Shown: piece after piece, positions 5,515-42,980 of the stretch
Position numbering within the stretch: the first letter of the stretch is position 1
How the letters are laid out: the number at the start of each line of letters is the position of its first letter
Origin: a bacterium
GTDB taxonomy: Archaea; Thermoplasmatota; E2; JACPAO01; JAHFTW01
Assembly (NCBI GenBank): GCA_040390065.1
Contig: JAZJZE010000001.1
Coordinates: 160,001-224,000 of the forward strand
DNA length: 64,000 bases
Direction: 5' to 3'
The notes under the pieces: generated by a model
Told to the model about the DNA's origin: nothing
Seen by the model: the letters and a program-made list of their open reading frames with translations, nothing else
The model's database searches: none
Position numbers and translations under genes: made by a program

Positions 5515-6879
5515 GTGGCGGGTGTGCGGCGCTGTTTGTCCTGTGGCATGGACGTCGTTGCCAGCGCGCGCACGACGGGGCCAGTGCGCTGCCCGAAATG
5601 CCACGCGACCTTTGGCGTCGCGGTCCGCTTCGTCCCCGACGATCCCACCCTGGCCACGGTCTCGGCAACGCGCGCCGCCCCGCGGGTCCTGCCTCCGCTC
5701 CAAGCCCGGCCTCCGCGCCGCGCCAAGTCCGGACAAGGCGCATTGGCGGCGCTCGCCGTCCTGCTTCTCGTCGCGGGCGGCACGCTCATCGCCATCGCGC
5801 ATCCGTGGGACGCGGGGAGCATCCTGCCTGGCGTCGGCGGCGGCGATGGCCTGCGCGGCGACGGCGGCCGGCTTCCCGGAGGCCGGGGAGAGCCACCGGC
5901 GGACGCGGTCGACGGCATCTACCACCGCACCTATTCGTGGTCCTACGGCGGCACCGATTGGACCTTCAAGCTCAACATCCCGAAAACGGATTACGATTCG
6001 TTCCACGACGTGGACCCCCGGCCGAGCCGCATCGTCGAACGCAACGGCGCGCTCTACAGGCAGATGGCGTACGACGTCTTCGTGACCACGCCGCTTGACG
6101 ACGCCTACATGCAGGAACTTGCAGACCAACTCCACACCGCGGCGCAGGGCAAGGGCTGGAGCGATGACCAGACGCTGTCGTTCGCGTTGTCGTTCGTGCA
6201 GTCGTTGCCGTACACCTCGGATCGGGTCACGACGGGGTTCGACGAATGGCCTCGCTACCCACTCGAGACGCTCGTGGACAACGGCGGCGACTGCGAGGAC
6301 ACGTCCATCCTGTACGCCAGCCTGGTGCAGGCCCTCGGCTACGGCGCCATCCTCGTGTCGCCCCCCAACCACATGGCCGTCGGCGTCAAGGCGCAAAGCG
6401 GCGTTTCCGGGATCTCCTACCAGTACCAGGGCAGCTCGTACCTCTACGCCGAGACGACGGGGGAGGGCTGGGCGCTGGGCGAGGCCCCGCCTGAGTACGG
6501 CGATGCGACGGTGCAGATCTTCGACCTCGTGCCCAAACCGCTGTTCTCGCTCAAGGTCTCGTACAACCCGAACGTGGTCGGTGGCATGCAGGAACTCACC
6601 CTGAACGCGACGGCGATCGGGTCGGCCCTGGCCGACGGTGTCGAACTCACGGCGCAAGTCACGTCGGGTCGCACGACGTACGACACGCAAACCTGTGCGG
6701 CCGTGATCATCGCACCGGGGCACTACGCCACGTGCCTGCTTCGGCTCGACCTTCGCAAGGTGCCCCGTGGCCAGGAAGTCCTGATCGAGAGCAAGGTTCT
6801 GGACTCCGGCGATTCCGGCACGTTGTACGCGCGCCAGGATTCCGCGCCGTGGGTTCCCTGCAACCACAGCCGATGTTGA
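5515..6879 (+). CDS. Membrane-anchored transglutaminase-like cysteine protease with N-terminal zinc ribbon
   Basis: CLSC...CPKC ribbon, TM helix, then GGDCED, NHMAVG and YAETT catalytic-type motifs. Confidence 0.75.
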   Translation: MAGVRRCLSCGMDVVASARTTGPVRCPKCHATFGVAVRFVPDDPTLATVSATRAAPRVLPPLQARPPRRAKSGQGALAALAVLLLVAGGTLIAIAHPWDAGSILPGVGGGDGLRGDGGRLPGGRGEPPADAVDGIYHRTYSWSYGGTDWTFKLNIPKTDYDSFHDVDPRPSRIVERNGALYRQMAYDVFVTTPLDDAYMQELADQLHTAAQGKGWSDDQTLSFALSFVQSLPYTSDRVTTGFDEWPRYPLETLVDNGGDCEDTSILYASLVQALGYGAILVSPPNHMAVGVKAQSGVSGISYQYQGSSYLYAETTGEGWALGEAPPEYGDATVQIFDLVPKPLFSLKVSYNPNVVGGMQELTLNATAIGSALADGVELTAQVTSGRTTYDTQTCAAVIIAPGHYATCLLRLDLRKVPRGQEVLIESKVLDSGDSGTLYARQDSAPWVPCNHSRC

Positions 6880-6885
6880 TGGTGT

Positions 6886-7932
6886 CTAGCGCTTCGTCGT
6901 CTTGCGCACGGTCGGCAGCGTGTCCGGGGCACCTTTGACCCGGGGCTGCGTGTCGCGCCTTGCGGCGACAAGCCGGGCCGTCGGCGGCTGATAGCTGCGG
7001 TGGCTCGGGCAGTACTTGCTGCCCGTCCGGGACGTGTTGCGGCACTGGGCGCCGGCCGCCGTGATGGCAAGGCACTGCTCGCCCGGGATGATGGAGGTCG
7101 AGCGGCCCCGCACCGAGAGGAGGGCGTCGTCCGAGACGTCGTTGGCTGGCGTCGTGTCCAACATTTGCGCGAGCTTGCGTGCCCCAGGTGGCTGGTATCC
7201 CTTGTGGCTGGCGCAGTATTTGCTTGAGCCGCGCGTCGAGTTGCGGCACTGCGACCCATCTGTCGTGATGGCGGAGCATTGCGGGTGGTAGCCGTCATCG
7301 GATGACGGGGCTGCCTTCTTTGGCGGGCTCCGGGTCGGCGTGGAGACGCTGCGGCGCAGGAAGGGCAATCCGGTCTTGCTGTTCGCGCCGACCTCGTAGC
7401 CGGCCGGCATCGCACAAGGGACGCCCGACTTGGGCTTCGCCTTGGCGAAGAAGTACTGCGGCGAGCCATTGGCCGTGTGGCGGACGTGCAGCGTGTACCC
7501 GTTGTACGTGAAGACATCGTCCGCAGCGGGCGTGGTTTCGATCGCGAGCGCCATCGGGGCCGACGCAGGTGCAGACTCTGCCGTGCGGTGGACGCGAACC
7601 TGGACGCCCATGGAATCGGAGATGGCACCATTGGCGGCCATCACGTAAGGCGCATTGCAACCGGCGCATCGCACGGTCTGCGGCCTTGTCGTGAAGAGTT
7701 GGACGCTTTCGCCGCAACGCGAGCACGGGAAGTGCACGCGCGCCTGCGGAACTTCAAGGAAGACGTGCTGGACGCCGCCGAAGAAGGACTTGCGTACCAG
7801 CACGGCGCCGCGCTTCGTGTTGGCAAGGACGCGGCGCGACCCGATCGTCGTCGCATTGACGATGGTGGTGCCGGCGGGAAGGTTCTGCTGGAGATGGGAC
7901 TCGGCCCAGTCGGGAATCGGGTTGGCAGGCAT
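6886..7932 (-). CDS. Uncharacterised multi-zinc-finger protein A (shared N-domain + Zn ribbon + small basic domain + 2x CX9CX10CX2H)
   Basis: GAGGT ribosome-binding site; clear homology to 8431-9273 and to the N-terminus of 9270-10679. Confidence 0.85.
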   Translation of the reverse strand: MPANPIPDWAESHLQQNLPAGTTIVNATTIGSRRVLANTKRGAVLVRKSFFGGVQHVFLEVPQARVHFPCSRCGESVQLFTTRPQTVRCAGCNAPYVMAANGAISDSMGVQVRVHRTAESAPASAPMALAIETTPAADDVFTYNGYTLHVRHTANGSPQYFFAKAKPKSGVPCAMPAGYEVGANSKTGLPFLRRSVSTPTRSPPKKAAPSSDDGYHPQCSAITTDGSQCRNSTRGSSKYCASHKGYQPPGARKLAQMLDTTPANDVSDDALLSVRGRSTSIIPGEQCLAITAAGAQCRNTSRTGSKYCPSHRSYQPPTARLVAARRDTQPRVKGAPDTLPTVRKTTKR

Positions 7933-7987
7933 GGTGGACCTCGGCGCCCGTTGGCATGGGCATCGCCCATATACGGCTGCCGTCGCC

Positions 7988-8434
7988 TCAGAACAGGATG
8001 CCGCGCAGAGTCTCCGCGAAGTAGTCCAGGTCGAACGGCTTGGCGATGAAGAGGCGCACGCCGAAGTCGCGCGTCGCCTGGACGACGAGGGCGGGGTCGG
8101 GGAAGGCCGAGATCATGATGCTGGGCGTGCCGGGGCGGACGCGGGCCGCCTCGTCCAGGAACTCGAGTCCGTTCATGCGTGGCATCTTGAAGTCCGTCAC
8201 GATGAGGTCGATGGCCTGCCGGCGCAGGATGTCCAAGCCCTGCATGCCAGACGTTGCGGTCGCCACCTCGACCGACGGCAGCGCTTGACCCAGGGCGCGC
8301 TTGATCGAGTCGACGACGTCGGGCTCGTCGTCGACGACGAGGACGCGGGCGCGGCGGGTCTTGGGCAGGGCCATGGGCGGCAGCGTCGTCTTCCCGGGGG
8401 CCGCTGGCTTGGGGCGGCCCGCGGGTTGGTTCAC
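7988..8434 (-). CDS. Stand-alone response regulator (REC only)
   Basis: VLVVDDE, IVTDFKMP phosphoacceptor, MISA, KPF. GTG overlaps the upstream stop (alternative ATG 8374). Confidence 0.9.
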   Translation of the reverse strand: MNQPAGRPKPAAPGKTTLPPMALPKTRRARVLVVDDEPDVVDSIKRALGQALPSVEVATATSGMQGLDILRRQAIDLIVTDFKMPRMNGLEFLDEAARVRPGTPSIMISAFPDPALVVQATRDFGVRLFIAKPFDLDYFAETLRGILF

Positions 8435-9273
8435 GGCGTCGCCTTCCGGCGGACGCTCGGGAGCGTGTCCGGTGCGGCCTTGACGCGGGGCAGCGTGTCC
8501 TCGCGCTGGGCCGCGGCCTTGGCGATGGCGGGCGGCTGGTAGCCGAAGTGGCTGGCGCAGTACTTGGATTCGTGGCGCGCCGAGTTGCGGCACTGGTGGC
8601 CGTCGCTCGTCAGGGCGGCGCACTGCGGCCTGTAGTGGTGCTCGGCTTCGGGGGTCAAGTCCTCGCCGTCGGGGGCCGTACCCTTCTTGAGGAACGGCAG
8701 GCCGGTCTTCTCGTTGACGCCGACGTGGTATCCCGCCGGCTTCGCACACGGTGCACCCGACCGGGGCTTCGACTTGGCGAAGAAGTAGATTGTCCGCGAG
8801 CCGCCGTTCTTGAGTTCGACCATGCGGCCGTGCAGGGTGAAGCCGTTGAACATGAACGGTCCCGCGGCCGTGGGGCTAGCCGGTGCAGTGCGCTCGCCGG
8901 TCGCGGGCAGCGTCGCAAGGCCGGGGGTCCACGACAGGCGGTCCTTGATCTCCGGAAGGCCACTCGTGTCGATGGCGTACTTGCTGCCGCAGATGCCGCA
9001 ATGCACCAGCGCTGGCAGGTCGAGGCGGCGGAACTCGAGTTGCTCCTGGCAGACGACGCATTGGAAGTTGACGCGTTCGCGTGGGTTGGCAAGAAGCTCG
9101 TGGCGCGGCTCGCCGAACCAGCGCTTCGTCACGACGACGGCGCCGATGCGGGTGTTGGCGACGACGACGCCGCGGCGGTGCACGGCGGCATTGAGGAGGA
9201 CGGCGTCCGCGGGCAGGTTTTCTTTCAGGTGGTTGAGAGCCCAGGCGGGCAGGTTGGTCTCGGGCATGGTCAT
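8431..9273 (-). CDS. Uncharacterised zinc-finger protein B (paralogue of A, one CX9CX10CX2H)
   Basis: ATGA overlap with the kinase stop; same domain order as protein A. Confidence 0.85.
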   Translation of the reverse strand: MTMPETNLPAWALNHLKENLPADAVLLNAAVHRRGVVVANTRIGAVVVTKRWFGEPRHELLANPRERVNFQCVVCQEQLEFRRLDLPALVHCGICGSKYAIDTSGLPEIKDRLSWTPGLATLPATGERTAPASPTAAGPFMFNGFTLHGRMVELKNGGSRTIYFFAKSKPRSGAPCAKPAGYHVGVNEKTGLPFLKKGTAPDGEDLTPEAEHHYRPQCAALTSDGHQCRNSARHESKYCASHFGYQPPAIAKAAAQREDTLPRVKAAPDTLPSVRRKATP

Positions 9274-10679
9274 GTCCTCTTGGGAGCGGTGGTCGCGGCG
9301 CGTCGATGCGCGGCATGCGCGGCCGGAGCGGGAAGTGTCACGGCAAAGCGTGCGCCCTTGCCTGGCCCGTCACTGTGGGCGGCGAGCGAGCCGCGGTGAG
9401 CCTTCGCGATGGCGCGGGCGAAGAACAGGCCAAGGCCCAATCCGCCCTGCGTCTGCATGCGGGCTGCCTCGAGCTGGATGAAGGGCTCGAAGATGCGCTG
9501 GGCGTCCGCCGCGTCGAAGCCGCAGCCTTCGTCCTCGACGGCGAGGTCGGCGCCGCCCGCCAGCCGCTTCGCCGTGACCGTGATGCGTCCTCCCGGCTCG
9601 CTGAACCGGATGGCGTTGGAGAGCAGGTGATCCACGGCCTCGCGCAGTCGGGCCTCGTCGGCGACGACGGGCACGCTTCGCGGAACGCGAACGGCAAGCC
9701 GCAAGCCTGCGGCATCGGCCTTCGGCTTCCACGCGGCGGCTGCGGCCTCCAGCAGGGGCGAAAGGTCGGTGGGCGCCAGGGCCAGCGGCAGTTGCCCGGC
9801 CTGCACCTGCGACACGCGCACGACGCTGGAGATGACGTCCTCGAGTCGTTTGGCGTTGCGCACGGCTTGCCGTACGGCCGCTTGCTGCGGCTCGCTGTTC
9901 GGCGCGCCCTCCAAGGTCCGCAGCGAAAGCAGGAGCGGCGTCATCGGCGTCTGCAGTTCGTGGGCGGCCGAATTGATGAACGTGGTCTTCATTGCCTCGA
10001 GTTGGGCGTCCGTCTGCGGGGCCGCCTCGTCGGCGGACTCGGAGCGGTTGAGTGCGGCCCATTCAGGCATGCGTCGGGCCATTGCAGTGCGGGCGGCGGA
10101 GACGAGGGCGGGCGTCGAGGTCGAGCCGGCGTTTGCCGTCGCGGCCAGTGCCTCAGCCGCCAGGCTCGCTGCCGAAGGGCCGGTGCGTGCATGGCGCCGG
10201 CACAGGGACGAGTCCGGCCGCGCCAGGTTGTGGCAGGGCGCGCCGCTTGCCGTTTCGCCAGCGCAGCGCGCCTGCGGGACCGGTGGCGCCGTGCGGGCGC
10301 GCGTCGTGATGCGAGCGGTGGCCCGGCTGCCGGAGGGCGGCGCGCTGGCAGGCGCCGGGGCATCGACGCGGCCGTGCATATCGACGGCAATCGGCTTGCC
10401 GCAGTGGCCGCAATGGACGGTCGTTGGGACGACGAGTTGGCGGAACTCCAAGGCCTGGTGGCAGGTCGGGCAGGGGAAACGCAGGCGTTCGCGCGGGCTT
10501 GGCAACAGTCGATGCGTCGGCGCGCCAAAACGGCTCTTGGTCAGGACGACGGCGCCAAAGCGCGTGTTTCCGAAGACGACGCCGCGCCGGTGGACGCGGA
10601 CGTTGTAGACTTGGCCGAGCAGGGGCAGATTGTCGCGCACATGCTGCAGAGCCCATGCCGGAATCGTTGCCTTGCCCAT
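9270..10679 (-). CDS. Cytoplasmic sensor histidine kinase with zinc-finger input domain
   Basis: H-box AAHELQTPMT, N-box LLSNAIRFS, G1 DEGCG, G2 GGLGLGL; no TM segment; start MGKATIPAW at 10679. Confidence 0.9.
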   Translation of the reverse strand: MGKATIPAWALQHVRDNLPLLGQVYNVRVHRRGVVFGNTRFGAVVLTKSRFGAPTHRLLPSPRERLRFPCPTCHQALEFRQLVVPTTVHCGHCGKPIAVDMHGRVDAPAPASAPPSGSRATARITTRARTAPPVPQARCAGETASGAPCHNLARPDSSLCRRHARTGPSAASLAAEALAATANAGSTSTPALVSAARTAMARRMPEWAALNRSESADEAAPQTDAQLEAMKTTFINSAAHELQTPMTPLLLSLRTLEGAPNSEPQQAAVRQAVRNAKRLEDVISSVVRVSQVQAGQLPLALAPTDLSPLLEAAAAAWKPKADAAGLRLAVRVPRSVPVVADEARLREAVDHLLSNAIRFSEPGGRITVTAKRLAGGADLAVEDEGCGFDAADAQRIFEPFIQLEAARMQTQGGLGLGLFFARAIAKAHRGSLAAHSDGPGKGARFAVTLPAPAAHAAHRRAATTAPKRT

Positions 10680-10683
10680 CGTC

Positions 10684-10938
10684 TCACGGTCGTTGCGCAA
10701 TAGTGATGCGGGCGGTGTCGTCGCCGGCGGCCAGGATGTCGGGGATGCTTGTCGCGGCCGGGCGGGGGCGGGCAAAGTAGAGCAGGATGAGCGTCAGGAC
10801 GAAGGCCGCGTAGAGAAACAGCAGCGGAACCATCCAGCGCGACTCGTTGCGGGTGTAGTCGAGAACGACGGCGACGAAGAACAGGACGTTGGCCAGGAAG
10901 CCGATCTTCATGCCCCAGCGGACGGTGCGGCGCTTCAC
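10684..10938 (-). CDS. Small two-TM membrane protein
   Basis: 84 aa with two hydrophobic helices; GTGA overlap with the upstream gene. Confidence 0.7.
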   Translation of the reverse strand: MKRRTVRWGMKIGFLANVLFFVAVVLDYTRNESRWMVPLLFLYAAFVLTLILLYFARPRPAATSIPDILAAGDDTARITIAQRP

Positions 10939-31517: not shown

Positions 31518-31686
31518 GCGAAGCCTGCGACACGCCTGATTCTGAGCGGCCTGCCGCTGCGGTCCGACTTGCTCGGGCCGCAGCGCCAGGCGTGCCGCAT
31601 GCGTGTCATCCAGCCGCCCTCGACCGTCGATGGCGCAGCTCACGTCGCTGCGCAATGGCTAAGCGAAGCGCATGCCATTGCGCCGC

Positions 31687-31872
31687 GTGGCATTCACCCA
31701 CAACGGCTACACCCTGCACGCACGCGAGGTCGCCTTGAAGGGCGGCCACAAGCAGGTCATCTATTTCTTCAGCCAGCGCAGGCCTCAAAGCGGCATGCCG
31801 GTCGAGATGCCCGAAGGGTACGACGTGGCCGTCAACAAGCGCACGGGGCTGCCGTACCTGAAGAAGAAGTAG
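31687..31872 (+). CDS. Small basic protein; free-standing copy of the domain in proteins A and B
   Basis: NGYTLH...IYFFS...SGMP..MPEGYDVAVNKRTGLPYLKKK (alternative start 31672). Confidence 0.85.
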   Translation: MAFTHNGYTLHAREVALKGGHKQVIYFFSQRRPQSGMPVEMPEGYDVAVNKRTGLPYLKKK

Positions 31873-34197: not shown

Positions 34198-35244
34198 TCA
34201 GATGGCGTCGCGAATCCCTTGTTCGGTCACATTGACCACGGCTTCGCCTTCGGGCAGGTGCGGGCTGTCGACGAGGCGGCAGATGCGCTTTCCGCCCTTG
34301 CTCTTGCGCAGGTAGATGCGGAAGGTGCTGGTGTGGCCGACGATGTGGCCGCCGATGGGGCGCGTCGGATCGCCGAAGAAGGCATCCGGCTTGGCGCTCA
34401 CTTGGTTCGTGACGACGCAGGCGGCGTTGTTGATGCCGGCCAGGCGCTGGAGGTCGTGCATGTGCTTGTTGAGTTTGCCTTGGCGGTCGGCGAGTGTGCC
34501 GCGGCCGACGAACTCGGCGCGGAAGTGCGCCGTCAAGGAATCGACGATGATGAGCTTGATCGGGAACTCGCGGCAAAGTTCCGCGGCGCGTTCCGCCAGC
34601 AGCATCTGGTGGTTGGAGTTGAAGGCGCGGGCGACGTGGATCTTCTTGAGGGTCTCCGTCGGGTCCATGCCGAGGGCCTCGGCCATCTGGGTGATGCGCT
34701 CGGGGCGGAAGGTGTTCTCCGTGTCGATGAAGAGGGCGTGGCCCTCGAGGCCGCCGTCCGCTTGGGAGCGCTGCACGTTGACCGCGAGCTGCATGGCGAA
34801 CTGGGTCTTGCAGGAGCCGAACTCACCGTAGAACTCGGTGATGGCCTGCGTCTCGATGCCGCCGCCCATGAGTTCGTCGAAGGCCTTGGCCCCGGTGCCG
34901 ATCTTGGTGACGGTCTTGCGGCGCTCGGCCACTTCGAGGCCGGTCTCGAAGCCGCCGACGTCGGCAAGCTTGCGGGCCGCGTTGATGATCTTCTGGGCGA
35001 TGCCTTCGCCGATGTCGCACTTCTCCGCGATGTCGCCGGGGGACGCAACAGCGATGGCCATGAGGTCCTCGTAGCCGGCCTCTTTCATCTTCTCCGCGGT
35101 GGCGGGGCCGACGCCGGGGAGGTCCTCCACGGTCATGCGGATGTGCCCCTCGCGCTTCGGGTCGTTCGTGATGTTCGCGTCGTTTTCCAAGGTTGCGTCG
35201 TAGTCTTCTTCCATGGCAACCGATTCCTTCTGTTTTCTGGCCAT
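34198..35244 (-). CDS. radA: DNA repair and recombination protein RadA
   Basis: N-terminal HhH ([12 protein letters not shown]), [40 protein letters not shown]. Confidence 0.97.
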
Positions 35245-35355
35245 TTGAGGCACCAGCCGTCTGGAGCCTTGGCCCGGAGTTAGCCATGAAAGCCCAGGTG
35301 GATGAAAGTACTGGTGCAGGCCGCGGCCTGGACAGGAGCCAGAAGGCCCCGGCCG

Positions 35356-38300
35356 TTACTTGCCCTTCTTGGCCCGGGCGTCGTGCAGCTTCAGCAGGGC
35401 GTCGATCTTGGCTGCGTCGTAGCCCGGTGGGCCGGTGGGCGCCTTGGCCCCGATGCGTTCGACCAGCTTGCCTGCGGCGGGGCGGGCAGCCGGCGGCGGG
35501 ATGGGCATGCGCGGCGGCGCCGGTGCGGGCGGGGTCGGCCGCGCAGGGGCTGGGACGCCACGCGGCTGGATCGCGACGCGCGCCGCGGCTTGCACGGCCG
35601 GCGGCTCCCACGCTGGCACGGCGGCGGCTTCGCGACGCGCCTTCTCGGCGGCAGCGGCCGCCGCGCGGGCCCTTGCCTCCTCCTCGTCGCGACGCTTGGC
35701 CTCGGCCTCTGCCTGCGCATCCTGGCGGGCGATCTCGTCGCGGTGGGCTTTCTCGGCGTCCTCGCGTTCGCGGTCGCGGGCAAGCCGGGCGGCTTCCTTG
35801 GCCTGCTCCTTGGCTTGCCGTTCCGCTTCCTTCTCGGCGGCGGCCTGAGCCTTGGCCTGCTCCTTCTCGCGAGCCGCGCGCTCCTTCTCTTCGCGGCGGC
35901 GCGTCTCCTCCGTTTCCCGCTGGGTTTCCTTGGCCTTGTCGCGGGCAAGCGCCTGCGCGGCGGCCTGAGCCTCGGATTCGGCGGCATCGCGGGCCGCCTT
36001 CTCCTTCTGCTCGCGGCGGCTGAGGTCGGATTCCACCGGTTTGGCGTCAGCCTCGATGGTCTTCTCCTTGCGCAGTCGTGAGAGGAAGGCCTTCTTCTCG
36101 GGGGCCTCGGCAGTTGCCGCGGCAGGAGTGTCGGGCTTGGCGCGGCCGAAGCGACCCAAGAGGCCCTTCTTGGTCTCCGCGGGCTCCTCAGGCTCGGGCG
36201 TCGCGGTGATCTCCACGACCTTGCCAGCCTTGCCCTTCTTCACGACGACGACGGGCTCGGCGGGGGGCTCAGGTTTCGTCTCCGCCGGGGGCGCGTCGTC
36301 CGCCTTCTTGGGCTTGAATCGTGACAGGAATCCGGGCTTCGGCGCCTCTTCGGTAGCGGGCGCGGACGGGGGCTCGACGACGATGACCTTGCCGGCCTTG
36401 CCCTTCTTGGGCGCTTCGAGGACCGCGGGCGGCGCCGCCTCGGCGTCCGGCTTGGCCTTGCGTGCGAAGCGGCCGAGCAGGCCCTTCTTCGGCTCCTCTG
36501 CGGGGGAAGTCTCGACCGGGGCGGCCTTGGATTTCTTGCCGTCCTTGACGACTTCGACCTTCGCGGCCGCCTTGGGCTCGTCGGCGCCCTTCTTCGAGGC
36601 CTTCTTTGCCTCTTTGGCGGCGAGTTTGGCTGCGGCCGCTTCCTCCTTGGCCTTCACTTTGGCGGCCTTCGCGGCCTCTTTCTTCTGGCGCTTGAGGTCG
36701 CGCCTGGAGAGTGCGGGCGCTCCGGCAGGCGCTTCGGCCTTGGCCTTGCCGCGCAAGCGCGACAGCAATCCAGCTTTCGTCTCCTCGGGCTTGGCCTTCT
36801 TGCCCTTGGGCGTCGCGTCGGCCTGCTTGGCCTTGTCGGCCTTCCCTTTCTTGCCTTTCCGGAAACGCCCCAACAGGCCGGCCTTGGGCGCTTCCTTGGC
36901 CGCCTTCTTCTCGGCCTTCTTGGCGGCGGCACGCTCCTTCCGCGAGAGCTTGGGCTCGGCTGCGTCCTTCTTGCCACGGCGCAGGACACGGGCCAGCAAC
37001 CCGGCCTTGGCGTCCTCGGAGATGGGCTTGTCGGCGGCCGAAACAGGGGGCGCGGCGGGGGCAGCCTCCTGCACCTTGGCGGCCTTCCTGGTTGGGATTG
37101 GCGCGACGGCAGGAGTCGGCTCCTCCTCGCCCTTGCGCCGCAATCGGCCGAGAAGCGACGGCTTGGCCGGGGCCACGGTTTCCTCGCCGCGAGCTTCGGC
37201 CTTCGCCTTCTGCTTGGCAAGCCGGGCCGTCTCCTTGGCCTTGGCAAAGTCCGCCTTGCGCTTGGCTTCGGCGGCCTTGCGTTCCTCCTTGAGGCGTTCC
37301 TTCTCTTCACGGCGCAGCGCGCGCAGGTCGGCAGGCTTCTCCTCGACGGGGGGCGCCTCGACGGGAACGAGGGCCTCGGTGACGTGGAAGCCGGCGGGCG
37401 TCGTGTACTCCCGGCCCGCGCGGTGGCCGAAGGCGTAGACGCGGCCGTGCTCGCCACGCTCGTCCTCCGGCAGCTTCTCGAACGGGCTCACGTCGCCGGG
37501 CAGCCGCGGCTTCGGGTGGCTGTGCTTGTCCTCGGGCAGGACCTCGAACGGGCTGCGGCCGTCGGGCAGGCGGGGCTTCGGGTGCGGCGCGTGCTCGTCG
37601 TCGGGCAGGCGCGCAAACGGACTCGTGCCATCGGGCAGGCGCGGCGCGTCGTGGATGTGGCGGTCCGCGTCGATGCGGGCAAACGGGCTGCGGCCGTCGA
37701 CGAGCCGGACCTTCTCGTGGGCGGCGGCCTTGCGATCGGCCTTGTCGGTCTTCTCGTCCCAGTCGTCGCGACGAGCCTCTTGGGATTGCTGCCAGACGGA
37801 ACCCTCGTACGGGCTGGAGAGCGGCTTCGCGATGGCTTGCTCCCACAGCGAGGAGGACTTGCCCGCGAGTTTGTCTTCGCGTTCGCGGCGGCGTGCCATC
37901 TCACGTTCGCGGCGCTCCAGTTCGCGGCGGTGGCGCTTGTCGGCCCGGGCCGCGGCGCGGGGATCTGGCGCCTTGGATTCGTCCTTCTTGGGTTTCGCTT
38001 CGGCGGGCTTGCCTCTTGCCTCGAGCTTGGCGGCCTTGGCCTTTGCCTTCGCCGCCTTCTTGGCATCCTTGGCGGCCTTCTTCGCCAGCTTGCGAGCCAG
38101 TTTTTCCTCGCGCTTGCGCAGGGCGGCGGCCTGCTTGTCGGTCGCCTCGCCAGGGAACGGCTCGGTGGTCTTGGCCTTCTTGCCGAACGGGATGAGGCGA
38201 CCGAGTCCGGCGCCTTCCGGCTTCTCCTTGCCCTTCCCGGCCTTGGCTTTCTCCGGCTTGTCGGGCTTGGCCGCGGCCTTGTCATCCTTGCGGCCGAACG

Positions 38301-39984
38301 GCAGCGCGAAGCGGGATGCCTTCTCCGGCTCCGCTTTCGCAGGCTTTGCCTCCTTCGTGTCGCCCTTGCGTCCGAAGGGCAGCGCGAAGCGCGACGGTTT
38401 CTCGGCCTCGCCCTTTGGCGGCATCTTCGCCGGCTTGGCGTCCTTGGCGTCCGTCGCGGGCTCGACCACGGTCTTGCGGCCGAACGGCAGGCGCAAGCGG
38501 CTCTCGGCCTTGTCCTTCGGTACCGCGACCGGCGGCGCCTTCTTGGGGCCCTCGTCACCGGCGTCCACGACGACTTTCTTGCCGAAGGGCAGGCCGAAGC
38601 GGCGACCCTTGGCCTCGTCGACGTCGGGTTTGGCCGGCTTGTCCTTGCGGCCGAAGCGCAGGAGGCCGGCCTTGGCGGGTTCTTCCGGCTTCGCGGTTTT
38701 CGCGGCTGGGGCGGGCTTGTCCTCCCTCGTCCGGCGCAAGCGCGCAAACAGGCCGGGTTTTGCCTCGGCCTTTGGCTTGGCGCCGCCCTTGGGCTTGACG
38801 GGCTCGGCCTTTGGAGCCTCTTCCTTCGCGCCGCGCCCGAACCTTAGCAGTGAGCGCTTGGCTGCCGGGTCCGTCGCAGCAGGTTTCGCGTCGGCCTCGG
38901 CGGCTTTCGCCTGCTTGGCCGCGAGCTTGGCAGCGGCCTCGTCCTCTTTGGCTTGGCGCTTGGCCTCAGCCTTCGCGGCTTTCATCGCCTTCTTGTCGGG
39001 CGCGGGGGCCCCCGGTGTCTGGCCGGCGAGGCCGAGGAGGGACTTGCACTTCGGGCAGGTTGCCTGGACGGCATCGCTTGGCGCTTCGAAGACGTGGTTG
39101 CACTGCGCGCACTCAACAACCTGCTTGCCCGCTGACGGTGCAGGAAGGGCTGGCGCGACCGGAGGTGTCGGAATCGTCACCTTGGCTGGCCGGCGGGGCG
39201 GCGCAGCGGCCGTGGTTGCAGGAGGCTCGGGTTCGGGCGGCGCGTCGGATTTCGCCTTGCCGCGCAGGCGGAACAGCAGGCCGCGCGTCTTGCGGACCGG
39301 ATGCGTCTCGGCGGCCACGTCCACTTCGACGCTGGCTTTGGACTTGCGGCCGAAGCGGTGCAGGAACCCGCGTTCGGCCTCGTGCTTGGCCTCGGCGGCG
39401 TGCTCCTTGGCGTCGACGGCCTCGGCCGGATGGTCCTCGTCGTCCTTGTCGGCCGAATCCGGCTTGGCGATGAGCTCCTTGCGGAGTGCTTCTGCGCCGG
39501 GGTCGGCGTGCCGCGGCTTGAGCTTGCGGGCCGCCTTGATCCACTTGGCCGTGAGCTTGGCCGTGACGGGGACGCCGATGACGTTCTGCTCGAGGCTGTC
39601 GAGGTACGCTTGGATCTTGGCCGCAAGCGCCTCGGCTTCCTGCTGGGCGAGCTCGTAGATCGAGTTGATCTGGACGCGCACCAGCACTTCGGCAAACTGC
39701 GGGCCCACACCCTTCAGGCGGATGAGTTCCGCCATGTCCTGCCAGCTGCGGATGCGCGCCGCAGGGATGCCGGTCTTCTTGGCGAGCTCCTCGGCGTCCG
39801 CGGCCACGAGTTGTTCGCTGTTGTCCACGCCCTTCTGCCGGAGCTTCAATGTGAACGTCGGCCCGATGCCCTCGATGTCCAGGATGGGGATGCCGGCGCC
39901 CGTGGCGGGAGTGCGGTCGCGCCAGCGTAGGAAACGGCGGCGCGCCGAGCCGGCTGCGGCTTCGTCGGTGGAGGGCTTCGCCAT
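35356..39984 (-). CDS. Giant Lys/Ala/Pro-rich protein with N-terminal HhH (DUF4332-like) domain, zinc ribbon and repeated amphipathic motifs
   Basis: DIEGIGP, LIRLKGVGPQFAEVL, CAQC...CPKC; 1542 codons with consistent GC3 bias. Confidence 0.85.
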   Translation of the reverse strand: MAKPSTDEAAAGSARRRFLRWRDRTPATGAGIPILDIEGIGPTFTLKLRQKGVDNSEQLVAADAEELAKKTGIPAARIRSWQDMAELIRLKGVGPQFAEVLVRVQINSIYELAQQEAEALAAKIQAYLDSLEQNVIGVPVTAKLTAKWIKAARKLKPRHADPGAEALRKELIAKPDSADKDDEDHPAEAVDAKEHAAEAKHEAERGFLHRFGRKSKASVEVDVAAETHPVRKTRGLLFRLRGKAKSDAPPEPEPPATTAAAPPRRPAKVTIPTPPVAPALPAPSAGKQVVECAQCNHVFEAPSDAVQATCPKCKSLLGLAGQTPGAPAPDKKAMKAAKAEAKRQAKEDEAAAKLAAKQAKAAEADAKPAATDPAAKRSLLRFGRGAKEEAPKAEPVKPKGGAKPKAEAKPGLFARLRRTREDKPAPAAKTAKPEEPAKAGLLRFGRKDKPAKPDVDEAKGRRFGLPFGKKVVVDAGDEGPKKAPPVAVPKDKAESRLRLPFGRKTVVEPATDAKDAKPAKMPPKGEAEKPSRFALPFGRKGDTKEAKPAKAEPEKASRFALPFGRKDDKAAAKPDKPEKAKAGKGKEKPEGAGLGRLIPFGKKAKTTEPFPGEATDKQAAALRKREEKLARKLAKKAAKDAKKAAKAKAKAAKLEARGKPAEAKPKKDESKAPDPRAAARADKRHRRELERREREMARRREREDKLAGKSSSLWEQAIAKPLSSPYEGSVWQQSQEARRDDWDEKTDKADRKAAAHEKVRLVDGRSPFARIDADRHIHDAPRLPDGTSPFARLPDDEHAPHPKPRLPDGRSPFEVLPEDKHSHPKPRLPGDVSPFEKLPEDERGEHGRVYAFGHRAGREYTTPAGFHVTEALVPVEAPPVEEKPADLRALRREEKERLKEERKAAEAKRKADFAKAKETARLAKQKAKAEARGEETVAPAKPSLLGRLRRKGEEEPTPAVAPIPTRKAAKVQEAAPAAPPVSAADKPISEDAKAGLLARVLRRGKKDAAEPKLSRKERAAAKKAEKKAAKEAPKAGLLGRFRKGKKGKADKAKQADATPKGKKAKPEETKAGLLSRLRGKAKAEAPAGAPALSRRDLKRQKKEAAKAAKVKAKEEAAAAKLAAKEAKKASKKGADEPKAAAKVEVVKDGKKSKAAPVETSPAEEPKKGLLGRFARKAKPDAEAAPPAVLEAPKKGKAGKVIVVEPPSAPATEEAPKPGFLSRFKPKKADDAPPAETKPEPPAEPVVVVKKGKAGKVVEITATPEPEEPAETKKGLLGRFGRAKPDTPAAATAEAPEKKAFLSRLRKEKTIEADAKPVESDLSRREQKEKAARDAAESEAQAAAQALARDKAKETQRETEETRRREEKERAAREKEQAKAQAAAEKEAERQAKEQAKEAARLARDREREDAEKAHRDEIARQDAQAEAEAKRRDEEEARARAAAAAAEKARREAAAVPAWEPPAVQAAARVAIQPRGVPAPARPTPPAPAPPRMPIPPPAARPAAGKLVERIGAKAPTGPPGYDAAKIDALLKLHDARAKKGK

Positions 39985-40173
39985 GTCAGCCCCCCCCTTG
40001 CCCCAGGCTCATCCGAGGGCAGGGTCTGCTTTTGCGTTCGGGCAAGACGACGGCTCCTCCAGAGGCAATGCCGCACAGTCCGGCTATAAATAAAGGGGTT
40101 GGCGCGAGTCTTGGATTGGGCGGGATGGTCCGATTGTCGCGGCCAGCCTGCCCATCCGCCCGGGTCCCGGCCG

Positions 40174-40953
40174 ATGTCGCAAGCCTTTTGCCGTCCCACC
40201 CCGCGTTCACCGTCCGTGTTCCTGCGTGCCCTGGTCCTCCTGGTGGCCCTCACCGCCACGGCATTCGCCTCGACAGGTTGGGCACAGGCGCAGTCGTCGC
40301 CGACCGATTCCGACCAGGACGGCATCCCCGACACGGCGGACAATTGCATCAGCCTCTCCAACAACGACCAGGCGGACCTCGACCAGGACCACTTGGGTGA
40401 CGCCTGCGACGACGACCGCGACGGCGACGGCGTGAAGGACCAGTTCGACAACTGCCCGACGACGCCGAACGGCAACCAGACCGACGACAACCACAATGGG
40501 CAGGGGGATGTGTGCGAGCCGGTGGACCAGCACACAACCACGAGCGGCCCGCCGCCGGACAGGGACGGCGACGGTTTCTCGGACGCCAAGGACGTCTGCC
40601 CGACGATTGCGAACCACGACCAGTCGGACATCGACCACGACGGCATCGGCGACATGTGCGACATCGACGCCGACGGCGACGGCATCGTCGACTCCGGTGT
40701 GGCATTCCCCGACAATTGTCCGACGGCGCCCAACCACGACCAGAAGGATTCCGACGAGGACGGCACCGGCAACGTCTGCGACGCAACGCCCCTGCCGCTG
40801 TCGTGCGCGACGTGCACGACCTCGCCGCAGGTCCAGGACAACACCAAGAAGAGCGAGGACCAGGGGCCTTGGATGCTCATTGGGGCGGGCCTGCTTGCTG
40901 GAACCGTCGTCGGCGTGGCGGCGGCGGCCCTCCTCCTGCGCAAGGGCAAGTAG
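40174..40953 (+). CDS. Thrombospondin type-3 repeat surface protein
   Basis: Signal peptide, repeated DxDxDGxxDxxDNCP...NxDQxDxDxDGxGDxC, C-terminal TM plus RKGK. Confidence 0.88.
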   Translation: MSQAFCRPTPRSPSVFLRALVLLVALTATAFASTGWAQAQSSPTDSDQDGIPDTADNCISLSNNDQADLDQDHLGDACDDDRDGDGVKDQFDNCPTTPNGNQTDDNHNGQGDVCEPVDQHTTTSGPPPDRDGDGFSDAKDVCPTIANHDQSDIDHDGIGDMCDIDADGDGIVDSGVAFPDNCPTAPNHDQKDSDEDGTGNVCDATPLPLSCATCTTSPQVQDNTKKSEDQGPWMLIGAGLLAGTVVGVAAAALLLRKGK

Positions 40954-41468: not shown

Positions 41469-42980
41469 TCAGACGGCGTCGACGGTGATGGCTTGCGGCG
41501 TCGTGCGCACGAGGGCGAAGGCTTCCTGGCGCGGCATGATCCGCTGGGCCCCCGCCGAGGTCACGCGGTCGATGAGGCCGGCGCCCTGGAATTGGCGCAA
41601 GTGGTAGGCGACGAGCGACGGGTCGCAGCCGAGCCGCAGCGCGATGTCGTTGGCAGTCGAGCCGGGGAAGCCGAGAATCTGTTCGAGGATGGAGCGCGCC
41701 GTCTCGGAGCGCAGCGTGTCGTGACCCGGGACCGCTTCCGAGCCTTCGGCGTAGTAGCCCACGGCACCCTTCCATTCATGGCGGTGCACGAAGCCGGCGC
41801 GCACGAGGACTTGCAAGTGGTACTGCACGGAGGCGGAGCCGGTGCCGACGGCGCGCTGCAGGGCGCGGAAGTGGATGCCCGGCTGTTCGCGGATGAGGGC
41901 AATGAGGGTCTTGCGGTTCGGATGCTCCAGGAGCTCGTCGCCGGAGATGCGACTGAAGCCGGCGGCAAGGCCGCCGAGCCCAATCCACTTGCCGCCGGTT
42001 GCGACGCGCGCTCCGCGGGAGGCGATGCGCCGCCACGAGACGACAACGGCTCCGGCCACGCCGGCGGCCGCGATGGCGACGCCGACCGTGGACGGCGTGC
42101 CGCCTCCTGGCCTGTCCTGGACGGGGATGACTCCGGTCGAGGCCGGCAGCGCGGCGGTCTGCAGCCCAGAGGGCGCCGGCACGGCCGACAGGATCGCGCA
42201 GGCGTCGCCGTGGCCGTCATGGTCCGCATCCGCTTGGTCCTCGTTGGCCGTGCGGGGGCAGTTGTCCGCGGCGTTCTGCACGTGGTCGCCGTCGATGTCG
42301 TTGTCGCAGGCGTCGCCGATGCCGTCGCCGTCTTGGTCGGATTGCGTCGGGTTGCGGATGCCCGGGCAGTTGTCGCCGACGTTCAAGACGAGGTCCGCGT
42401 CGAGGTCCGTGTCGCAGGCGTCGCCGGCGGTGTCGCCATCGGAGTCGACCTGCGTGGGATTGTAGACTGTGGCGCAGTTGTCCGCGTTGTCCGGCATGCC
42501 GTCGCCGTCGGCGTCGCCGCTTGCGGCCTGGGGATCCGAGCCGTCATGCGGCTGCGAGTTGGAGGGTTCGGTGCTGCTGGACGAGCCAGATGGGCAGGGA
42601 GGATCGTTGGTGGCGTGCACCACGGCCTTGTAGGTCGTGGTCTGGCCGCGCGAGTCGGTCTCCTTGAAGACCACGGGGTAGTCGCCCGATGCGCCGTACG
42701 CGTGCTGCGGGTTCTGCTCGGTGCTGCTCGTGCCGTCGCCGAATTCCCAGGCCCAGGAAACGACCGGGTAGCCTGCTGGCGTCCACGACCCGTCGAAGGA
42801 CAAGGTCTCGGGCCCGCAGCCCACGGTTGTCTCGCTCCAGGAGAATCCCACCGCGCTGCCGTCGGCTTGCACGCCAGGCAACAGGCTGGACCCTGCCATG
42901 GCACAGACCACCAGGAAGGCCCCAAGATGGAAGGGGGTGCGGGAGTGGCTTCGGGGCAGGGACGGGACCACGTGGACCAA
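41469..42980 (-). CDS. Transmembrane regulator: PKD + TSP3 repeats + TM + tandem winged helix
   Basis: [20 protein letters not shown] (PKD), TSP3 repeats, [23 protein letters not shown]...VQYHL. Confidence 0.85.

Follow-up and report, generated by a model that had tools for sequence, protein, structure and literature searches.

A shared N-terminal domain of a soluble histidine kinase and two zinc-finger proteins in a Thermoplasmatota gene cluster, and its possible tethering to a small membrane protein

Organization of the gene cluster

The window, i.e., the whole 64-kb stretch of DNA analyzed here, contains a cluster in which a soluble histidine kinase and two non-kinase proteins, designated B and A, all encoded on the minus strand, start with the same N-terminal domain of about 105 aa (hereafter, the head; Table 1). 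Over this length, the head of B was 54% identical to that of the kinase and 39% identical to that of A, and an alignment of 23 sequences revealed 11 invariant residues: P, W, N, N, T, G, A, and two CxxC pairs. The initial annotation, which had described a common unit of about 100 aa with a CxxC...CxxC ribbon at the start of the three genes, was thus confirmed. In the head, a beta-rich part of about 65 residues precedes a zinc ribbon with four cysteines; the domain is basic (pI 8.5–11.3) and is tethered to the domains behind it (the cargo) by 30–120 residues that are Pro/Ala-rich or degenerate.

Table 1. Features of the gene cluster and a related gene elsewhere in the window
Feature	Position	Strand	Description
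Protein A	6886..7932	-	348 aa: head, basic domain, two fingers, tail
A, second finger	7000-7074	-	
A, first finger	7204-7278	-	
A, basic domain	7345-7515	-	
A, head	7618-7932	-	
Receiver-only response regulator (REC)	7988..8374	-	Response_reg PF00072, 81.3 bits; alternative GTG start 8434
Protein B	8431..9273	-	280 aa: head, linker, basic domain, finger, YQPP...DTxP tail
B, finger	8548-8622	-	
B, basic domain	8680-8862	-	
B, head	8956-9273	-	
Soluble histidine kinase	9270..10679	-	469 aa: head, Pro/Ala linker, CCCH finger, vestigial REC helices, HisKA, HATPase_c
Kinase, HATPase_c	9324..9659	-	PF02518, 83.1 bits against a cut-off of 26.4
Kinase, HisKA (DHp)	9795..9992	-	PF00512, 39.4 bits against a cut-off of 26.9; H-box AAHELQTPMTP
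Kinase, vestigial receiver helices	10005..10184	-	Residues 166-225; align with the last third of the sibling REC-kinase receiver (BLASTP, hhalign)
Kinase, finger	10191..10265	-	CX9CX10CX2H, regular-expression match
Kinase, head	10365..10679	-	All 11 invariant residues kept
TM84	10684..10938	-	84-aa mini-protein; 2 TM segments (8-30, 33-58), cytoplasmic C-terminal tail RITIAQRP
P331	10935..11930	-	Acidic surface protein; N-terminal signal/TM segment and C-terminal TM anchor (hydropathy), pI 4.5
Stand-alone basic-domain copy	31672..31872	+	66 aa; just after the L15e gene (Pfam), outside the cluster

As described initially, the kinase combines HisKA and HATPase_c domains without a TM region, and no hydrophobic segment reached the TM threshold in a hydropathy scan. 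The H-box was invariant in all four head-kinases aligned, and the N, G1, F, and G2 boxes of HATPase_c appeared in the alignment as LLSNAIRF, DxGxG, EPF, and GGLGLGL. The GC3 values of the kinase, B, and A genes were 0.82–0.89. The stop codon of the kinase gene overlaps the start of B as ATGA, as had been noted. The GTGA overlap claimed between B and the following regulator gene, formed by the GTG at 8434, is uncertain, because the ATG at 8374 (MALPKTRRARVLVVDD), located 57 nt downstream of that GTG, is the more plausible start.

This regulator, situated between B and A and consisting of a receiver as its sole Pfam domain, in line with the earlier description, comprises 128–148 aa, and its DD, D, S, and K residues are found in VVDDE, VTDFKMP, MISAF, and IAKPF. 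No orthologue was present at the locus in any relative examined, and only in the genome of the window (G000) does the gene lie two genes downstream of the kinase. At the locus of G010, a genome with an orthologous kinase, no REC gene was found within 4 kb; thus, the pairing of the kinase with REC is unproven.

The CX9CX10CX2H fingers were recovered with a regular expression in the annotated numbers, namely, one in the kinase (residues 139–163), one in B (218–242), and two in A (219–243 and 287–311), or four in all; elsewhere in the window, a six-frame search gave a single match, in a non-coding frame. The YQPP...DTxP motif trails the fingers in B and A, not in the kinase, and the basic domain of the same two proteins, previously given as about 55 aa, spans about 60 aa with a pI of 10.3; both features had been reported correctly. 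The 66-aa protein listed in Table 1 is related to these basic domains. A TATAT sequence occurs in the 55-nt gap upstream of A.

The spacing C-x9-C-x10-C-x2-H is common to the window fingers and the families zf-TRM13_CCCH (PF11722), DUF5763 (PF19067), and HGGxSTG (NF041373). Unlike members of PF11722 and PF19067, the window fingers fall slightly short of the cut-offs, with 19.8 bits for A in the comparison with zf-TRM13_CCCH (cut-off 20.9) and an E value of 0.094 for B with DUF5763. Matches to PF11722 and PF19067 were present in the precomputed annotation of the homologues P0006 and P0009. A Pfam search revealed no helix-turn-helix (HTH) domain in A or B, and the Atlas relatives of B residues 136–198 were only unnamed proteins of 61–89 aa and an HHH_5 protein. 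The cargo domains look like nucleic-acid binders, and A and B may bind nucleic acid. According to the available part of a study on human Trmt13, deletion of the CCCH finger altered neither tRNA binding nor activity (PMC8922252); the presence of a CCCH finger thus does not prove that a protein binds nucleic acid.

Distribution of the head and origin of the kinase

A search with the head profile gave 34 matches among 1.84 billion cluster representatives. Five matches of the Cna_B or C1 type were judged spurious and left out; the 29 true heads all begin within 13 residues of the protein N-terminus. The cargo is variable: four heads are followed by a kinase, seven by a helix-hairpin-helix domain (DUF4332/HHH_5), and 12 by a basic domain and/or CCCH fingers, while six proteins consist of the head only. 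Among 401 genomes sampled from the phylum, full-length heads were confined to one Thermoplasmatota family (f1) and one genome of another family. Within f1, the head was present in 20 of 32 genomes, usually as a single copy, and 18 of these 20 had one full-length head and no kinase fusion.

Head residues 1–65 had no match in Pfam or NCBIfam, and a profile search of the PDB returned only zinc ribbons, all sub-threshold. Comparison with known sensor and input families (PAS, GAF, HAMP, STAS, and others) gave no significant sequence match; a structural match to STAS in the Atlas had a TM score of 0.47 on a low-confidence model. For the ribbon part, the best match was LysW (E 0.0008–0.003), followed by Rpo12/RpoP, eS27, and topoisomerase 3-beta (E 0.01–0.1), all below significance, and Zn_ribbon_4 matched 14 of 23 family members below its cut-off. 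No description of the head or its architecture was found in the literature searched. Thus, the architecture is previously undescribed, as the initial annotation had supposed.

On the phylogenetic tree of the heads, those of the kinases grouped together as a single clade inside the B-type clade (98/96), and the head of A belonged to a separate clade (99/99). The kinase cores also formed a clade (88/89), sister to REC-kinases, and the two groups together were supported by 100/100. Alignment with hhalign (A6 against A9) gave a probability of 100, with homology starting at kinase residue 166, which corresponds to residue 87 of the sibling receiver. The trees and the alignment together showed a single origin of the head-kinase, in which a B-like head with its finger recombined into a REC-HisKA-HATPase kinase. 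The recombination point lies directly after the finger histidine, and the first ~86 receiver residues were replaced.

The kinase–B gene pair was shown to recur. Adjacency was read in the DNA of G000 and G010, and it is indicated for two more lineages by proxies: consecutive protein accessions in a third MAG and contigs of identical length in a fourth lineage. Between G000 and G010, the kinase orthologues shared 52% amino acid identity with a dN/dS of 0.43.

Conserved gene context and possible role of the head

In the window, P331 is the first gene of the module; its stop codon overlaps the start of TM84 as GTGA, and TM84 ends 4 nt before the ATG of the kinase. TSP3_bac repeats were significant in seven of eight P331 orthologues tested; the window copy gave only weak TSP_3/collagen matches. 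In relatives, P331 was found upstream of the TM-domain gene. A head-bearing gene directly followed a gene for the 2-TM domain in 19 of 22 loci, a context that the initial annotation had missed. The upstream gene was a stand-alone TM84 in 15–16 loci, a fused TM-module gene in three, and neither in three (the A-type locus of G010, G004, and G005). All 14 junctions of TM84 and head genes that were read overlapped or had a gap of at most 4 nt. The kinase gene lies directly behind TM84 in both loci read (G000 and G010); A of the window is not adjacent to TM84.

The 2-TM gene exists in two forms: a stand-alone form with the cytoplasmic tail, and a form in which the TM domain is fused to the basic/finger module and which has neither tail nor head. 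The C-terminal module of B was 72–76% identical to the fused form in genomes of the same genus. The tail has the consensus [KR]T[IV][IV]Y.R(P) and varies synonymously. A tail-bearing TM84 was present in 14 of 20 head-bearing genomes versus none of the 12 head-lacking genomes, which contained the fused form or gave no match. In G018 and G026, TM84–head pairs persist without cargo. The dN/dS values of the kinase, B, and TM84 were all below 1.

The cluster is best read as a lineage-specific elaboration of a conserved three-gene module comprising P331, TM84, and a head-first cytoplasmic protein. The head would serve for tethering or input by docking on the cytoplasmic tail conserved in TM84 and not on other heads, which we regard as a real possibility, somewhat short of an even chance. 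We infer this docking because head and tail are both restricted to cases in which the TM domain and the basic/finger module belong to separate proteins; where these are fused, neither is present. P331 would be a surface protein with calcium-binding TSP3 repeats. The kinase, B, and probably A would be drawn to the same membrane site, with B and A as putative nucleic-acid-binding cargo; the TM-less kinase would thereby read a membrane or surface cue and, in this genome, pass phosphate to the receiver-only protein, which would act by protein–protein contact. If true, this would suggest a way for surface signals to reach a kinase that has no membrane anchor. However, the association of tail and head is one of adjacent, co-inherited genes in related genomes and may record history, not function. 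Moreover, three loci lack the upstream TM gene, the head proteins of G002 and G009 stand beside the tail-less fused form, the RR codons of the tail could be constrained by the ribosome-binding site of the next gene, and TM84 evolves fast (39% identity and dN/dS 0.68 between G000 and G010).

The head could instead be a cytoplasmic sensor of a small ligand, metal, or redox state, B and A being one-component regulators and the kinase the two-component version for one intracellular cue. The presence of one N-terminal domain on four kinds of cargo, including the kinase and helix-hairpin-helix domains, is the usual pattern of an input domain; the invariant set consists of polar or aromatic residues (W, N, N, T) together with four cysteines, sibling kinases have a regulatory receiver at the position of the head, and two family members contain Cys-rich, metallothionein-like inserts. 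However, the long linkers suit tethering better than allosteric control of the DHp helix, the head resembles none of the sensor families searched, and the near-constant, translationally coupled TM84 gene and its tail are left unexplained; we consider sensing rather unlikely. Far less probable is binding of nucleic acid by the ribbon, by which the kinase, B, and A would be held on DNA or RNA, with chromatin- or ribosome-associated targets for the kinase. Although the charge of the heads, the appearance of the cargo, and the resemblance of the ribbon to Rpo12/RpoP, eS27, topoisomerase 3-beta, and LysW (E 0.003) agree with it, these matches are limited to a generic CxxC...CxxC ribbon below significance, the best of them, LysW, acts as a carrier protein rather than binding nucleic acid, and neither TM84 nor the tail receives a role.

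The initial annotation proposed that the head is a homotypic assembly module by which the kinase pairs with the heads of B and A, nucleic-acid-binding partners that would supply its output or input. The link between the kinase and B stood, given the recurrent gene pair; three heads are co-encoded in both G000 and G010, the B-type and kinase heads are mutually closest relatives, and self-association would be natural for a domain of dimeric kinases and DNA-binding proteins. The homotypic part was not upheld. Since only one full-length head gene, and no kinase fusion, exists in 18 of the 20 genomes with a head, docking of the kinase on a partner cannot be the general function of the head, nor hetero-docking its ancestral function, although homodimerization could be. 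In addition, the gene context points to the upstream 2-TM mini-protein instead, the invariant residues are polar or aromatic, the head sits on Pro/Ala-rich linkers, head-only proteins exist, and, between G000 and G010, the kinase heads have drifted apart far more quickly (52% identity) than the heads of B (76%). Homotypic docking is thus improbable, and it is slightly harder still to credit that the head is a passenger in a kinase whose receiver input was destroyed by recombination, the kinase being constitutive or controlled elsewhere and the adjacency of B a footprint of tandem duplication. Such an origin would fit the junction inside the receiver domain with its degenerate remnant, the faster evolution of the kinase (dN/dS 0.43 overall and 0.67 in its middle part) than of B (0.34 against G010), the loss of the finger in two of the six head-kinases with sequences read (it is kept in four), and the missing REC gene of G010. 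However, the fusion survives in six 90%-identity clusters of the protein database that have diverged to 43–59% identity, both kinase heads aligned keep 11 of 11 invariant residues, the dN/dS of the kinase head is 0.46, and the position behind TM84 is maintained. Local duplication and fusion, the scenario that the initial annotation had set against its own, is indeed how the kinase arose; because the fusion is under purifying selection in these clusters, it is nevertheless not a dead accident.

Comparison with known systems

As far as the available text of the archaeal census goes (Galperin et al., 2018; PMC5847659), about 40% of regulators are stand-alone receivers, and only three kinases and four regulators were counted in 11 Thermoplasmata genomes; this genome gave 24 HATPase_c and 22 receiver matches. 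The cluster resembles the cytoplasmic kinases and CheY-like regulators covered there in having a TM-less HisKA/HATPase_c kinase and a regulator made up solely of a receiver whose acidic pocket is intact; its output presumably also proceeds via protein–protein contact. It differs in that the input is the new head and not PAS, GAF, or any sensor listed in that part of the census (PMC5847659), the same head occurs on two co-encoded non-kinase proteins, and the kinase derives from a REC-kinase with most of the receiver replaced.

Histidine kinases are also controlled by small membrane or accessory proteins, such as SafA, MgrB, and UgtL acting with PhoQ, and by Bce-type transporters; in the cases covered by the excerpted review, the kinases acted upon are embedded in the membrane, and the contacts are periplasmic or TM (PMC8534201). 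If the head docks on TM84, a tiny operon-encoded membrane protein would likewise give a kinase a membrane or surface signal, as gene context and the split-versus-fused pattern suggest. Unlike in those systems, the kinase here is fully soluble and would be recruited via a dedicated cytoplasmic head, and TM84 would also hold non-kinase proteins.

One-component regulators reportedly share input domains with kinases (Ulrich, Koonin and Zhulin, 2005). Similarly, one N-terminal domain is combined here with a kinase transmitter or putative nucleic-acid-binding domains; in contrast to such regulators, as defined in the available part of PMC2808908, an unnamed basic domain, CCCH fingers, and DUF4332/HhH take the place of an HTH output, and the input is undescribed and flexibly tethered.

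Regulators of the ToxR/CadC type are single-pass membrane-tethered transcription regulators, a design also seen in the fused TM-basic-finger proteins of relatives. As in these, a surface part would be coupled through the membrane to a binding module in the cytoplasm; the design of the cluster differs in being split over as many as three polypeptides (P331, TM84, and the head protein), with a kinase plugged in. A covalent analogue is encoded in the same window at 41469-42980, where an ectodomain with PKD and TSP3 is joined through one TM segment to a cytoplasmic HTH domain.

The gene cluster and the shared head domain

The genome of the window, G000, belongs to an uncultured Thermoplasmatota archaeon (2.68 Mb, 89% complete, 67% G+C). 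The cluster comprises six minus-strand genes and is flanked by the genes of ribosomal protein S3Ae and enolase. GC3 values of 0.82–0.89 in kinase, B, and A indicated that all three are coding. Reading of the junctions in the DNA revealed a GTGA overlap between the stop codon of P331 (an acidic surface protein with a TM anchor) and the GTG start of TM84 (an 84-aa mini-protein with two TM segments and a cytoplasmic tail), a kinase ATG located 4 nt past the TM84 stop, an ATGA overlap between the kinase stop and the ATG of B, and a GTGA overlap between the B stop and a GTG. The receiver more plausibly starts at an ATG 57 nt downstream of this last GTG. A 55-nt gap upstream of A contains the motif TATAT, about 35 nt from the A start codon in this G+C-rich genome; it may be a promoter of A's own, so that A is perhaps not co-transcribed with the kinase operon. 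The intergenic region upstream of P331 (approximately 350 bp) is common to a divergent TrmB-family gene.

Features of the window discussed in the text
Feature	Position	Strand	Remark
454-aa protein	5515-6879	+	convergent with A
A	6886-7932	-	non-kinase protein with head
TATAT	7967-7972		in the REC-A gap
REC	7988-8374, or to 8434	-	receiver-only gene
B	8431-9273	-	non-kinase protein with head
Kinase	9270-10679	-	469 aa, soluble
TM84	10684-10938	-	two-TM mini-protein
P331	10935-11930	-	surface protein
Basic-domain copy	31672-31872	+	stand-alone, 66 aa; directly after ribosomal protein L15e gene
radA	34198-35253
1542-aa protein	35356-39984	-	adjoins radA
TSP3 surface protein	40099-40953
PKD-TSP3-TM-HTH protein	41469-42980	-

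The domain content described in the initial annotation was recovered throughout. The kinase contained HisKA (39.4 bits) and HATPase_c (83.1 bits) domains and no hydrophobic segment exceeding the TM threshold, and REC carried Response_reg as its sole domain (81.3 bits) with an intact acidic pocket. The N-terminal domain common to kinase, B, and A, hereafter the head, extended over about 105 aligned residues (54% for B and kinase, 39% for B and A). Kinase and B each carried a single CX9CX10CX2H finger and A carried two, and a six-frame search of the 64 kb gave only one other match, in a non-coding frame. The basic domain had a pI of 10.3 in B.

When 23 heads, drawn from this genome and 19 relatives, were aligned, 11 positions proved invariant, namely P, W, N, N, T, G, A, and two CxxC pairs. 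The head had no match in Pfam or NCBIfam, and its ribbon half alone gave sub-threshold matches to generic zinc ribbons. From PHROGs came only weak matches below threshold, to finger and ribbon, and PADLOC detected nothing specific. Searched exhaustively, 1.84 billion cluster representatives yielded 34 head matches, five of which, repeat or C1-type proteins, were judged spurious and dropped. In all 29 true members the head started no more than 13 residues from the N-terminus, followed by a kinase (4), a DUF4332/helix-hairpin-helix domain (7), the basic domain and/or fingers (12), or no cargo (6). In two head-bearing relatives, P0126 and P0129, a Cys-rich, metallothionein-like insert of ~70–100 residues separates the head from the C-terminal modules and could be a sign of metal handling.

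The full head was present in 20 of the 32 genomes of one Thermoplasmatota family (f1). Among 401 sampled genomes of the phylum, it occurred outside f1 in only one genome of another family, the remaining matches being to the ribbon alone. A scan of species-representative genomes for B/kinase-type heads found only G010, a relative of G000, and the region-restricted homologue search yielded only four close relatives.

Origin and retention of the kinase

The initial annotation had regarded a local duplication with fusion as speaking against a functional docking role of the head. Such an origin was indeed borne out for the kinase; its product was nevertheless kept. On the head tree, four kinase heads formed one clade inside the B-type clade (98/96), and the A-type heads formed a separate clade (99/99). 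On the tree of catalytic cores, six head-kinases grouped together (88/89), and their sister was a pair of REC-HisKA-HATPase kinases of the same lineage (joint clade 100/100). BLASTP and hhalign aligned the kinase from residue 166 with this sibling from residue 87, a Thr in the fourth strand of the receiver, and the fusion junction lay two residues past the finger His. Thus, on the combined evidence of trees and alignments, the kinase is a recombination product, in which a B-like head, linker, and finger entered a REC-kinase and a degenerate last third of the receiver remained. One REC-kinase, P0157, is labelled "Halobacteriales archaeon" at NCBI and shares a 90%-identity cluster with the Thermoplasmatota protein P0156, to which it is 100% identical; the label is probably a binning or labelling error.

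The head-kinases formed six clusters with 43–59% identity. Between G000 and G010, the kinase had a dN/dS of 0.43 and B one of 0.34, both rough because dS was near saturation. Adjacency of kinase and B was read in G000 and G010; for a third MAG it was taken from consecutive accessions and for a fourth lineage from contigs of equal length, both being database proxies and neither a DNA reading. The scope of the fusion is narrow: of the 32 family genomes searched, two contained it, and another four clusters came from assemblies outside those 32. A metagenome scan with the kinase alignment found nothing but generic kinases, none above 36% identity.

The REC gene was absent from all relatives' loci read, the G010 locus continuing with unrelated genes, and REC lies outside the conserved unit. 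Its best relatives were 48–49% identical. The window REC was also considered as kin of the sibling kinase's receiver, and no specific relationship was detected. HATPase_c matches in the genome numbered 24 and receiver-domain matches 22, many of the latter in short frames. Two-component genes are unusually many in this lineage for its phylum; a 2018 census gives three kinases and four regulators in 11 Thermoplasmata genomes (PMC5847659).

Genomic context and possible function of the head

HMMs were built for the head, TM domain, basic domain, finger, and tail, and 22 head loci from 21 genomes were mapped. The gene immediately before the head gene was TM84-like and stand-alone in 15–16 of the 22 loci and had the TM domain fused straight to the basic-finger module in three; three loci had neither form there. 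P331-type genes preceded the TM-domain gene in most loci, and TSP3_bac was significant in 7/8 P331-type proteins tested. The TM84 stop and the head start overlapped or lay no more than 4 nt apart in all 14 pairs read. Stand-alone TM84 proteins ended in a conserved tail, [KR]T[IV][IV]Y.R(P), represented by RITIAQRP in G000 and RLVIAERP in G010, with synonymous or conservative codon variation. In a family-wide search, the tail-bearing form was found in 14 genomes, all with the head, and in none of the 12 head-lacking genomes, which carry the fused form or no match. The genes are adjacent and co-inherited in related genomes, and the counts show a pattern, without the force of a statistical test. 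In a tree of the C-terminal module, neither the split nor the fused form was resolved as ancestral.

Across 13 loci, a Tyr in the TM84 tail accompanied "HW" in the fourth-strand region of the downstream head in 10/11 cases, and an Ala variant accompanied a head without the Trp in 2/2, both kinase loci. The pairing amounts to one clade-level change and is a weak lead for an interface.

The TM domain and the basic-finger module are fused in some genomes and encoded separately in others, a classical argument for their physical association, and the tail and the head are exactly the two elements confined to the split state, which would name the interface. The reading that we rank first, though at somewhat less than an even chance, is therefore that the head would dock on the tail of TM84, with kinase, B, and A converging on one membrane site. 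Such docking fits the strictly N-terminal position of the head, the flexible head linkers, the TM84-head pairs persisting without cargo in G018 and G026, and the position of the kinase gene directly behind TM84 in both loci read. Against it stand the three head loci without an upstream TM-domain gene, the position of A away from TM84, and the coexistence of the head with the tail-less fused form in G002 and G009; in addition, part of the TM84 tail may be a ribosome-binding site.

The head could instead be a cytoplasmic sensor domain, which we consider rather unlikely. For the head, comparison with the Atlas (model pLDDT 0.61) gave a weak STAS match (TM 0.47) beside zinc ribbons. The initial annotation had proposed homotypic docking of heads, which would bring the kinase to nucleic-acid-binding A and B. 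This appears improbable; 18 of the 20 head-bearing f1 genomes had a single full-length copy, and three copies with the kinase fusion were found only in G000 and G010. An inert relic is quite improbable, and all invariant residues were present in the two kinase heads of the 23-head alignment. A nucleic-acid-binding role of the head itself seems very improbable. Among PDB sequences, LysW was the best match (E 0.0008–0.003), followed by Rpo12 and eS27, and hhalign found no relation between the head and the TM/basic/finger alignment (probability 2%).

Extending tail docking to the whole locus, P331, TM84, and the head might form an unrecognised three-part transmembrane signalling device of Thermoplasmatota with interchangeable effectors, a possibility that we hold as doubtful. 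A calcium-binding surface protein and a two-TM mini-protein would display a short cytoplasmic tail, onto which the zinc-ribbon head would plug reversibly; evolution would have hung swappable effectors on the head, among them DNA-/RNA-binding modules and, in a small number of lineages, a histidine kinase. If this is true, one surface sensor could serve both soluble kinases and nucleic-acid binders in archaea.

Within their families, kinase and receiver are unremarkable. The novelty lies in the head domain, in its occurrence both on a kinase and on non-kinase paralogues encoded alongside, in the fusion into a receiver domain as reconstructed here, and in the P331-TM84-head module; in the literature, searched mostly at abstract level, no account of the architecture or of these domains together was found. 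Ulrich is said to have described in 2005 that one-component and two-component systems share inputs. The nearest analogues are this sharing (one-component systems are defined in PMC2808908), kinases under the control of small membrane proteins (PMC8534201), and membrane-tethered regulators, exemplified within the window by the PKD-TSP3-TM-HTH protein. The 2018 census names as open in archaea the signal route to kinases without membrane segments and the targets of receiver-only regulators (PMC5847659). The locus offers a concrete, testable case: the partner of a new head domain can be guessed from where genes are split and where they are fused, the steps leading to its acquisition by a kinase can be retraced, and the protein set for testing is small (TM84 tail peptide, head, kinase, and REC). 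Head and basic domain are moreover defined by this locus as two families as yet without a name, the basic domain being widely distributed in one Thermoplasmatota class.

Finger, basic domain, and other genes of the window

The finger narrowly missed the zf-TRM13_CCCH and DUF5763 cut-offs, and its matches to the NCBIfam models HGG_STG and GvpO_arch_Nterm were weak. For human Trmt13, PMC8922252 reports that deletion of the CCCH finger left tRNA binding and activity unchanged. The basic domain was far more widespread than the other parts, occurring in 91 of 301 sampled phylum genomes, among them almost every genome of the same class; it was mostly a stand-alone protein of 62–75 aa, with several copies per genome. 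The stand-alone copy in the window, about 2.3 kb away from radA, may be a protein of chromatin or one that binds RNA. In the Atlas, residues 136–198 of the B model were linked to unnamed proteins of 61–89 aa and to an HHH_5 protein.

The 1542-aa protein begins with a DUF4332/helix-hairpin-helix domain, its sole Pfam domain, and is otherwise Ala/Lys/Glu/Pro-rich (21% A, 14% K); its gene accounts for the strong negative AT skew of that region. The PKD-TSP3-TM-HTH protein, encoded near a TSP3 surface protein, combines PKD and TSP3 repeats with a signal peptide, one TM segment (295–317), and a cytoplasmic HVO_0163_N/MarR-type HTH, and is predicted to be a single-chain surface-to-DNA regulator. The 454-aa protein, for which weak Zn_ribbon_4 was the only Pfam match, has an N-terminal CxxC...CxxC ribbon, one TM segment (73–98), and an outer domain whose GDCED...H motif recalls transglutaminase-like proteases. 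The convergent pairing of its gene with an A-type gene is also present in G010.
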